A stretch of DNA of 44,340 nt from Candidatus Omnitrophota bacterium (GCA_015233495.1 JADFXQ010000010.1:1-44340), one strand, 5' to 3'; numbered from the stretch's first letter, positions 15,153-30,113 are shown. The notes: generated by a model from the letters alone, not told the origin. Made by a program: numbers and translations.

Positions 15153-15331
15153 TTTTTACTCCTCATATTTGCAACTTCAAACAAAACATACCAACATCCG
15201 TTTTATGCTATCGATACCTGGTCTCGCCGTCGTAGTTAAGATGGTAACCAGTTGCCCTCAAAGGCAGAGCGTATTACGCTTAGCCTGAGCGCTCAGCCAA
15301 TAATGGCCAGCGAATTAAAAGGAGGCACAAC

Positions 15332-16371
15332 ATGGTTACCATCGGATGCGATGTACATTTAAAAACCACCACCATGACCGTATTAGACCATGATGGCAAC
15401 AAACTCGCGAGAAAAAAACTTGATAATGATCCACAACAACTTACACGGTTTGTACGACAATTCCCTGGGAGCAAACAAATAGCCATGGAAACTTGTTATA
15501 ATTGACCAATATTTTACGAGCTGTTTAAAAACGACGTCGACGATTTTCGTCTTTTGCACGCCCGCAAGTTGCAATCGATCATTGCGTCCCAAGCCAAAAA
15601 CGACACCAATGACGCAGACGAAATCGCCTATTTGGTTCATAGCCGCCGTCCATTGTCCGAGAGCTATGTCGCCGACTTACAAACGCGCGGGTTCCGCCGC
15701 CTGTTGCGGACACGCGCGGGTTTTTCTTTAGATGTCGCGCGAATTAAGAACCAGATCCATGCCATACTTAATTCCCACACGTTTTATAGTCAAAGACCAC
15801 AAACTTTTAAAGATCTGTTCTGCAAACGCGGTCTGGCTTATCTTGAAACGGTGGAGCTTCCCGAGCAAGAGCGTTTTATTCTCAACCGATTGTTAGATAA
15901 AATCGTCGAGCTTGAACGCCGCCGGGATGAATTTGACGAATATATTCAACACATTCATTTTCATCACAAAGATCTGGCATACCTTCAAAGTGTTCCCGGA
16001 ATGCGCGGTAATATTTTAAAATATATTATCCTCGCCGAGATCGACAATGTTGATCGATTCCCTATCGCCCGAAGCCTTGTGGCTTATGCCGGGCTCATTC
16101 CCCGCGACCGATCTTCCGGCGGGAAAATCCGGTTCGGTTCGCTGCGCAGTGAATGCAATCAGTTCCTGCGTTGGGCGCTGATTCAAGCTGTTGTCCATGC
16201 CATTCGGCAAGACCCAGGCATGAAAAATTATTACACCCAAGTTAAAAAAACAATCGGAATAATTCCTCGGCCGCACGAATTGCTACGGCCCGGGCTTTGT
16301 TAAAAGCCATTTATTGTGTTTTGAAAGAGCATCGTATGTATCGTAAACATGTTGTTGTAAACCACGTGTAG
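15332..16371 (+). pseudogene. IS110 DEDD recombinase/transposase, disrupted
   Basis: AGGAGG RBS; GCDVH, AMET, KNDTND (DEDD) and AYAGLIPRDRSSGGK; in-frame TGA at 15503-05; frameshift at the A7 run 16244-50 before AARIATARALLKAIYCVLK. Confidence 0.9.
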
Positions 16372-16560
16372 CTCACCACGCCCCTTTATCGTCCGAGTCT
16401 TTTAGGCGAGGATGGAATGATTCGTAGTTTTGAGTACCGTGGTTCTAATATTAACTTGTGCCGCTTTCACAGGGGCACCGATATAAGGATGCAACACGAA
16501 CGCAAAATTAATTTAACCGGTCGTAAAATTATTTTACTGCCGGGATGTAGATCGTTTGTC
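16372..16560 (+). ncRNA. Predicted bridge/seek RNA of the IS1111-type element (3' end uncertain)
   Basis: Guide-like segments CGCCCCT (16379-85), TCGTAG (16422-27), TTAACTT (16451-57) and ATATAAG (16481-87) match target and circle junction; each pair brackets a hairpin. Confidence 0.8.
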
Positions 16561-16649
16561 TCAAAGAGCAGATGATGATTACTGGTTTTTACAATATTTT
16601 AAAAACACCGACGGAAAAAAAGTCTGTAGAACAAAATTTAATGGGCCGC

Positions 16650-16671
16650 TTGACACTGGTTACTATATAAG
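16650..16671 (+). promoter_or_regulatory. -35 half of the circle-junction promoter
   Basis: TTGACA at 16650-55; joining the ends gives TTGACA-17 nt-TAAGAT. Confidence 0.8.
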
Positions 16672-16741
16672 GGGCGCCCCTTGTGGGCGCCCGTTATCCG
16701 GTCGCGCCAGAACAACGGGCGCCCACGAGGGGCGCCCCTAC
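16670..16741. repeat. REP-like GTAG palindromic element, copy 1 (interrupted by the IS)
   Basis: [GT]AGGGGCGCCCCTTGTGGGCGCCC...GGGCGCCCACGAGGGGCGCCCCTAC. Confidence 0.9.
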
Positions 16742-23269: not shown

Positions 23270-23330
23270 GTCGGGGCGCCCGTTGCGCGGTCGCGCCAGA
23301 ACAACGGGCGCCCACAAGGGGCGCCCCAAC
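23270..23330. repeat. REP-like element, copy 2 (left arm shortened; GTCG/GTTG ends)
   Basis: Shares GGTCGCGCCAGAACAACGGGCGCCCAC with copy 1. Confidence 0.85.
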
Positions 23331-30021: not shown

Positions 30022-30113
30022 GTCGGGGCGCCCCTGGTTGGGGCCGGCGTGCTGGCGCGACCGCACACCGGGCGCCCACGAGCCTGCCTGCCGAAGGCAG
30101 GGGGCGCCCCTAC
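30022..30113. repeat. REP-like element, copy 4 (inverted spacer, 19-nt insert)
   Basis: GTCGGGGCGCCCC...CTGGCGCGACC...GGGCGCCCACGAG[19 nt]GGGCGCCCCTAC. Confidence 0.85.

Follow-up and report, generated by a model that had tools for sequence, protein, structure and literature searches.

A putative IS1111-type guide RNA in the right end of a decayed Candidatus Omnitrophota insertion sequence seated in a host palindrome

Introduction

Does the long non-coding right end of a decayed insertion sequence in Candidatus Omnitrophota bacterium encode an RNA that directs the element to its target? The element, of about 1436 bp, lies at positions 15234-16671 of contig JADFXQ010000010.1 (assembly GCA_015233495.1), whose 44,340 nucleotides (1-44340, one strand, 5′ to 3′) were analysed as a whole and are called the window below; the parts of the element are all given on its + strand. 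The original prediction, made from the DNA sequence alone, had read positions 16372-16560, just 3′ of the transposase gene, as a bridge or seek RNA programmed against a repeat of the host. Based on word matches, covariation with the flanks of related elements and conserved stems, we suggest that positions 16357-16508 very probably encode an IS1111-type seekRNA/bridge RNA with two target guides and two donor guides that share an AG core. The element and its clade are new and their kind is known, namely the RNA-guided insertion sequence as described in 2024; ISfinder entries were outside the comparison.

The insertion sequence and its guide words

An insertion sequence that belongs to the IS110 family and, within it, to the IS1111 group occupies positions 15234-16671 and is seated in the head of a palindrome of the host that resembles repetitive extragenic palindromic (REP) sequences. 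At the left junction, ...TCGT is followed by the core AG (15234-35) and then by TTAAGATGG; at the right junction, ...CTATATA is followed by the core AG (16670-71) and GGGCG. The insertion site thus reads CGT-AG-GGGCG and lies in the head of a REP-like palindrome that has many copies. One criterion for the IS1111 group was a pair of sub-terminal inverted repeats, each 7-17 bp long and separated from the end by a short extension. The element has a 12-nt pair at 15241-15252 and 16655-16666 (92% complementary, repeat pair I8), with extensions of 5 nt on the left (TTAAG) and 3 nt on the right (ATA). Its non-coding ends measure 96 nt upstream of the gene (15236-15331) and 298 nt downstream of it (16372-16669), which is the layout that Siddiquee et al. 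(PMC11187229) and also Durrant et al. (PMC11208160) give for the IS1111 group.

Four words in the downstream end match the junctions: CGCCCCT (16379-16385), TCGTAG (16422-16427), TTAACTT (16451-16457) and ATATAAG (16481-16487). Each occurs once in 16372-16669, and both the words and the junctions are as the original prediction had described them. The first, the putative right target guide (RTG, 16379-16385), is the reverse complement of the core AG plus GGGCG. The putative left target guide (LTG, 16422-16429) consists of TCGT and the core AG, followed by TT, which are also the first two bases of the left end. The putative right donor guide (RDG, as such guides are called by Durrant et al.) spans 16448-16457; the reverse complement of 16451-57 is A-AG-TTAA, that is, the core with the first left-end bases. 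Finally, the putative left donor guide (LDG, 16481-16488) is formed by ATATA and the core AG, identical to the last right-end bases, and the right flank begins with the same base as the G that comes next. The two donor words thus match the circle junction over 7 + 7 bases, and the first of them, extended to ten bases, matches at 9/10.

No dinucleotide-preserving shuffle of the 298-nt non-coding end contained all four words (0/20000). Single words appeared in 136, 809, 1390 and 484 of these shuffles, at least two words in 130 and at least three in one. The four guide words are real and not a product of chance, which we regard as confirmed. It is very improbable, in our view, that they are a mere resemblance, due to chance or left over from duplicated REP or end sequence in a decayed element, and have no RNA function. 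Such an origin would suit an element that is decaying (its gene carries a stop codon and a frameshift), words that are short, and a genome in which G+C-rich fragments of the REP-like repeat are common (AGGGGCG has 267 copies). However, it does not account for the joint occurrence of the four words, and it is contradicted by relatives in which words at the same scaffold positions change to match different flanks; the stems between the words are, in addition, kept by compensatory changes. Both lines of evidence are set out below.

Covariation of the target guides with the flanks of relatives

A protein search yielded 56 proteins, the best non-self match having 82% identity, mostly on contigs of 1.2-2 kb, and 43 of these proteins were aligned and used to scan metagenome contigs, which gave 40 loci. 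The covariation set comprised the window and 20 loci of the closer clade (L024-L037, L039, L040, L055-L058), with the truncated L038 and L059 excluded. Loci L041-L054 form a sister clade, and L061-L063 (25% identity) were outside the analysis.

All clade members share one scaffold 3′ of the gene. It begins with a CTCAC-like strand, a variable stretch of 7-8 nt ending in CT, a hairpin and a variable stretch ending in AG, and continues with TTTTGAGTA, ATTTTA-N-CTT, a second hairpin and ATATAAG. The two variable stretches take the positions of the target guides, and their sequences follow the flanks of each locus. On the left, the guide equals the locus's own flank for 3-6 contiguous bases beyond the core in 19/19 readable loci (L024, which has no left end, and L034, with 2 nt of flank, were dropped). 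The sum of matching bases was 77, compared with a permuted mean of 14.5 and a permuted maximum of 45, and none of 20000 permutations reached it. On the right, the 62-nt guide region shares at least 5 contiguous bases with the locus's own core AG and right flank in 17/18 loci, L029, L036 and L055 having been dropped for want of a right end; here the sum was 127 against a permuted mean of 83.1 and maximum of 114, again with 0/20000 permutations reaching it. Covariation of guides with targets across homologs had been named in advance as a check on the original prediction, and it is borne out on both sides. The broader claim of a bispecific IS1111-type guide RNA 3′ of the gene, with AG-core guides aimed at a multicopy GTAG-headed palindrome, is supported. 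The same or nearly identical elements found at different sites (L039/L040; L035/L036/L060) retain the same flank words; they show a single set of guides arriving at separate places that share those words.

One of these loci, L060, is a decayed L035-like copy whose protein match is 33% identical to the query over residues 4-302. Its left-flank word, AAG-AG, is the same as in L035 and L036.

Structure and extent of the RNA

The minimum-free-energy fold (-81.6 kcal/mol, z -2.51, equalled in stability by 0/100 shuffles) holds both hairpins that the guides bracket, that is, the imperfect hairpin between the target guides and GTGCC...GGCAC between the donor guides. Both had been predicted, and both are kept in relatives by compensatory changes. 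A conserved structured RNA (seekRNA/bridge RNA) is predicted at 16357-16508 by a family covariance model, on which the window scores 117.9 bits as one of its 18 training sequences. With this model, 23 matches were obtained in 53 sources. Those outside the training set were L040 (identical to L039), L029 (104.1 bits, cut off), L036 (29.5 bits, cut off), L060 (65.6 bits) and L047 of the sister clade (22.3 bits).

The target-binding loop is closed by stem P2, whose 5′ strand (16371-16375) pairs with 16431-16435; 94.5-96.6% of its cells are paired, and it shows the compensatory change CTCA/TGAG to CCCA/TGGG. The loop is capped by the stem-loop P3 (16389-16415), seen in the fold and 86-90% paired, with 6/8 pairs changed on both sides. 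Outside P2, the 5′ strand of P1 (AACCACG, 16360-16366) pairs with 16438-16444; here 78-79% of cells are paired and 5/7 pairs have changed on both sides. The donor-binding loop is capped by the stem-loop P4 (GTGCC...GGCAC, 16458-16478), which is 97% paired and has 3/4 pairs changed on both sides. Finally, the strand CGTGGTTC (16438-16445) is shared: it may serve either as the 3′ strand of P1 or as the 5′ strand of P5, which pairs with 16491-16498 and would close the donor loop. P1 and P5 compete with each other, and both show compensatory changes. On the MAFFT and model-fitted alignments, P5 is 68-70% paired versus 78-79% for P1.

RNAalifold, applied to a MAFFT alignment of the 18 sequences, predicted P2, P3 and P4, with 11/16 pairs compensated. 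When P1 is included, 88.2% of cells pair, compared with 28.7-39.9% when the partners are slid by 1-3 columns, and 16/24 pairs have changed on both sides, a result reached by 0/500 shuffles. Pairing values were similar on the model-fitted alignment.

The span of 16372-16560 given in the original prediction has to be shifted. The RNA probably starts within the end of the gene, at about 16357-16360, because the conserved stem strand 16360-16366 lies inside the last transposase codons; the conserved, structured part stops near 16508. The P1-closed first domain would measure about 88 nt (16360-16447) and the whole conserved RNA about 150 nt.

Beyond this part, the window copy and L024 have a right-end spacer (16510-16640) about 110 nt longer than that of most relatives. 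A hairpin within it (16517-16543), found in the fold and with an analogous hairpin of changed bases in L024, may be the 3′ hairpin of a long form of the RNA. Ten Rfam matches (E up to 10; SprD, BASRCI414 and others) were rejected, since they were far under the gathering scores and lay on REP hairpins or were spurious.

Donor guides and pairing beyond the core

The sister clade (L041-L054, 38-44% protein identity) allows the donor words to be compared with different ends. There the fourth word is ATAGTGG in 12 loci and ATAGGAG in L054, and it equals the locus's own right-end word in 13/13 loci. These elements carry the same kind of RNA and have a CCCGC...GCGGG hairpin on one side and (G)AATGACA, a further palindromic repeat, on the other; read as its complement, the first guide is GGAATGACAG, GGGATGACAG or GGATGACAG, varying with the flank.

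The bases that follow the 3′ guide of each loop were also compared with the DNA. After the fourth guide, the next base is the first base of the right flank in 15/18 loci (permuted mean 7.3; 0/20000 permutations reach 15), and the cognate T stands there in 1/20 loci only. After the left target guide, TT equals the first two left-end bases in 17/19 loci where both are readable. It looks as if the 3′ guide of each loop runs 1-3 bases past the core into its non-cognate partner, which would match the handshake pairing of IS621. In that element, as reported in PMC11208158, the bases beside each loop's 3′ guide pair with non-cognate DNA once the strands have been exchanged, and pairing with the cognate DNA is detrimental. 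Our literature search found no title or abstract that reports handshake pairing in IS1111-type elements. Tentatively, and with the balance still somewhat against it, we propose that handshake pairing operates in the IS1111 group too, with the guide order reversed relative to the element, and that the second loop reads DNA. The shared strand 16438-16445 could also switch the RNA between a target-only form (P1, about 88 nt) and a bridging form (P5).

The same observations bear on another explanation, in which the RNA is a seekRNA for the target only, the donor words are scaffold or protein-binding sequence with a fortuitous likeness to the conserved ends, and the transposase recognises the ends through the sub-terminal repeats. 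In ISEc11, an 82-nt RNA with target matches only sufficed for movement and supported it better than the long form (PMC11187229), and the need for a second loop in IS1111-type elements is therefore not established by the published account. Within the window's clade the ends are near-invariant, so that covariation of the donor words has no variation to show there, and the RNA follows only two of the few left-end variants, namely L031 and, in part, L033. On the other hand, the fourth word changes with the right-end word across three states, with the agreement throughout the sister clade given above, and the base after it tracks the right flank and avoids the cognate base, which is hard to explain unless the loop reads DNA. 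Donor loops were, moreover, predicted for IS1111-group elements, including ISPa11, by Durrant et al. (PMC11208160). We thus consider a target-only RNA unlikely and retain the four-guide RNA as the preferred reading.

Observations that weigh against a four-guide RNA

Several observations weigh against the preferred four-guide RNA and should be taken together. The transposase gene is broken twice and is the sole IS110-family gene found in the 2.1-Mb, 91%-complete assembly; the window copy may be a fossil. The guides are short (those of the window extend past the core by 4 and 5 bases), and the closing stems are ambiguous, P1 and P5 being mutually exclusive and both partly supported. No Rfam family was matched, and no bridge-RNA family was among the matches. 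The sufficiency of the short ISEc11 RNA and the near-invariance of the ends count here as well; in the window's clade, donor pairing rests on identity and on the sister-clade comparison. Furthermore, a simple promoter scan gave no promoter-like site on the + strand inside the element (its 3 sites were all on the - strand).

Two loci depart from the pattern. L024, whose protein is 89% identical to that of P0002, an intact relative, is the closest of the relatives with DNA; its right guide fits its right flank only 2 bases beyond the core (4 shared bases), a mismatch that could result from off-target insertion, later rearrangement or a recently changed guide. The right junction of L033 is irregular, reading ATATA-TG-GAATGA in place of ATATA-AG-G..., and its guide predicts AG-GGAATGA; either the end has mutated or the assembly is in error. 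Lastly, the loci are related to one another, and in some cases a single element is represented by several of its sites, so the counts are not independent events and the permutation counts overstate independence.

The transposase gene

The DEDD transposase gene (15332-16371) was delimited from reading frames, PF01548, PF02371 and NF033542. The open reading frames 15332-15505 and 15554-16303 are one frame split by an in-frame TGA at 15503-15505, and the final 41 codons stand in the -1 frame, past a run of A near 16244-16250 (a frameshift). The TGA takes the place of W58, a tryptophan that is invariant in 43/43 aligned relatives. Reading it as a recoded tryptophan was considered and rejected: TGA terminates 5/19 long frames of the window, and the frameshift is also present. 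As TGA works as a stop in the window and a second lesion exists, the gene is a pseudogene with two lesions and not a recoded gene. The intact reading frame expected of an autonomous element is lacking in the window copy, which concerns its activity and not its family. With a stop codon and a frameshift in its recombinase gene, this copy cannot move on its own. The idea of a candidate programmable recombinase does not hold for the window copy and is better applied to its intact relatives.

The family assignment was supported by several profiles. PF02371 was matched with E = 7.4e-19 (68.4 bits against a cut-off of 21.3 bits). For PF01548, a 57-aa piece (E = 8.9e-5) and a 249-aa piece (E = 3.5e-9) gave matches; since the gene is split, these are partial and lie under the cut-off or close to it. 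The profile NF033542 (IS110 family RNA-guided transposase; cut-off 140 bits) scored 153 bits when the gene was read through one TGA, 117.3 bits on the 230-aa fragment alone, which is below the cut-off, and 168 bits on P0002, the 82%-identical relative. The GL-P----SG motif is present as GLIPRDRSSG, with G254, S261 and S262 invariant in the alignment of relatives. Similarity to the IS621 recombinase (PDB 8wt6) is marginal, with E = 8.9e-6 over residues 138-211.

The host repeat and a second copy

The REP-like repeat is found throughout the genome, with the consensus YGTAGGGGCGCCCCTNGTGGGCGCCCGT and often in inverted doublets. Over 111 contigs and with both strands counted, the 9-mer GGGGCGCCC has 139 matches, the majority of which are embedded in YGTAGGGGCGCCCCTNGTGGGCGCCCGT. 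In the same way, on both strands, the inferred uninterrupted insertion site TCGTAGGGGCG has 12 copies in the 2.1-Mb genome, where about one is expected, and CGTAGGGGCG and GTAGGGGCG have 22 and 72 copies, respectively. The element is placed after GTAG at the outer edge of a REP-like doublet. The left target half, TCGT with the core AG (15230-15235), is the head (..CGTAG) of the interrupted repeat, as judged from the window sequence and the REP head consensus YGTAGGGGCGCCCC. The right core AG and the remainder of the target (16670-16741) make up a doublet whose two copies are inverted (repeat pair I1, arms of 35 nt, 86% complementary).

A second copy is represented by the last 120 nt of the element, which open contig C69 and are followed by another REP-like head, AG GGGCGT. 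The left part of this copy is not in the assembly, in which the left-end 14-mer occurs once only. When the right target guide is extended to 9 nt, its complement AGGGGCGTG fits the C69 flank one base better. No match to RAYT (REP-associated tyrosine transposase, a Y1 transposase; PF01797) was found in the 91%-complete assembly with a search that detected it in control genomes, which does not imply its absence from the organism.

A second repeat class occurs on contigs C36, C47, C69, C80 and C89, in which a GGGGCG head is followed by CCCCATACGTGTCAAGTTAAG; the C69 copy of the element sits in one of these. The window itself contains further REP-like doublets at 23272-23327 and 30024-30110, the latter being a variant class with a CTGCC..GGCAG centre.

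Proposed mechanism

Based on the above results and on published work with ISEc11, ISPa11 and IS621, we suggest the following course of transposition for an intact element of this kind. The direct support from the present data consists of sequence matches, flank covariation and conserved stems. The element would be excised as a circle, and its joined ends would make a promoter with a -35 hexamer TTGACA (16650-55), a 17-nt spacer across the AG core and a -10 hexamer TAAGAT (15237-42). The transposase mRNA and the guide RNA would be made from it as one transcript; the RNA would then be trimmed and bound by the DEDD/serine recombinase. In the first loop, 16379-85 could pair with the top strand of the core and right flank, to which it is complementary, and 16422-27, identical to the left flank and core, could pair with the opposite strand. 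In the second loop, 16451-57 and 16481-87 may form the corresponding pair for the junction of the excised circle. All four guides contain the AG core, at which strands would be exchanged. Presumably, the bound RNA keeps the REP head next to the circle junction while the two recombine at AG.

The junction promoter was read by eye and would exist only in the circle. Its hexamers recur in most of 17 loci, as TTGCAA or TTGACA at the same place in the right end and as TAAAAT, TAAGAT, TAATAT or TATAAT in the left end. In the window, the right terminus (16650-16669) comprises the -35-like TTGACA, the right repeat (16655-66) and the ATA extension, and the left end (15236-15331, 96 nt) comprises the TTAAG extension, the -10-like TAAGAT, the left repeat and a ribosome-binding site; this left end is conserved in relatives. 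A junction promoter that drives the transposase and a long RNA as one transcript was proposed by Siddiquee et al. (PMC11187229), and the Pjunc promoter of ISEc11 is the subject of a paper cited in PMC13626964.

It should be mentioned that the left sub-terminal repeat (GATGGTAACCA, 15240-15250) is 100% complementary over 11 nt to 15333-15343, the first transposase codons including the ATG (pair I7); by eye, 10/11 of these pairs are retained in relatives. A transcript entering from outside could fold back and mask the start codon of the transposase. By contrast, a transcript from the putative junction promoter would begin inside or past the first arm of this fold.

Comparison with known systems

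The closest likeness is to the elements ISEc11, ISPa11, ISKpn4 and ISPst6 described in PMC11187229, for which a seekRNA was demonstrated by experiment. As in the window, their DEDD transposase measures about 340 aa and contains the GL-P----SG motif, their inverted repeats are sub-terminal with short extensions, and a long non-coding region lies downstream of the gene. In their seekRNAs, a segment complementary to the top strand precedes, on the 5′ side, one complementary to the bottom strand, and the two matches overlap at the insertion point. The predicted domain of about 88 nt and the RNA of about 150 nt fit the short (70-100 nt) and long (145-170 nt) forms reported there, and co-transcription from a junction promoter is expected in both cases. 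ISPa11 also resembles our element in its GTAG-headed REP target, GTAGGGCG (Table 1 of PMC13604230). The differences from this set lie in the host repeat and the guide words; in addition, the gene in the window is broken, and the element is known here from its sequence alone.

Compared with IS621 (PMC11208160, PMC11208158), there are likewise two loops, guide pairs that read opposite strands around a 2-nt core, and a REP target. As with the handshake guides of IS621 (PMC11208158), the bases next to each loop's 3′ guide fit non-cognate DNA, and in both elements the recombinase combines a RuvC-like domain with a serine-bearing C-terminal domain. However, the right end, downstream of the gene, is where the RNA is placed here, and in IS621 it is the left end, upstream of the gene. 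Relative to the element, the guide order is right-then-left in both loops here, the sub-terminal repeats are long, and the core is AG and not CT. ISPpu9 and ISPpu10 of Pseudomonas putida (PMC12288879, PMC11208160) similarly take a fixed position in REPs, often in REP doublets (bacterial interspersed mosaic elements, BIMEs), with AG at both boundaries. In the account given in PMC12288879, the bridge RNA of ISPpu9 belongs to a long 5′ transcript upstream of the gene, and no hybrid promoter arises in its circles, whereas the present element is laid out as in the IS1111 group and seems to have a junction promoter.

The AG core, the right-guide-first order and the homing to REPs, which the original prediction had presented as distinctive, have all been published. 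Siddiquee et al. (PMC11187229) saw the right-guide-first order in every IS1111-type seekRNA that they examined, and the AG boundary dinucleotide and REP targeting were described for ISPpu9 (PMC12288879). The description of a little-studied lineage is fair only in the sense that no close relative was found outside metagenomes. Compared with the 82% reached among metagenome proteins, the best match among 746 plasmid-borne IS110-family hits had 33% identity. In the same phylum (401 genomes), 5/400 other genomes were matched, with a best identity of 41%, and among the genomes of the same family the count was 0/14. The covariance model gave no match at the same-phylum loci with E up to 0.01; thus, the RNAs of those loci, if any, differ. 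A pattern-limited scan of species-representative genomes returned 6 distant loci (30-37% identity), four of them from archaeal metagenome-assembled genomes.

Significance

The element reveals no new mechanism. For the host genome, it explains the interruption of one REP doublet and at least one break in the assembly. It provides a cleanly readable natural RNA-guided insertion sequence from a clade so far almost confined to metagenomes, and its approximately 20 relatives with differing targets amount to a natural reprogramming series, which can guide the choice of an intact relative. The locus and its relatives also bear on two questions about the IS1111 group, namely whether the second loop reads DNA and whether handshake pairing takes place. 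If the proposal made above is true, they would offer natural-variation evidence for handshake pairing in this group, and for the reading of DNA by a loop that was dispensable in the ISEc11 assay.

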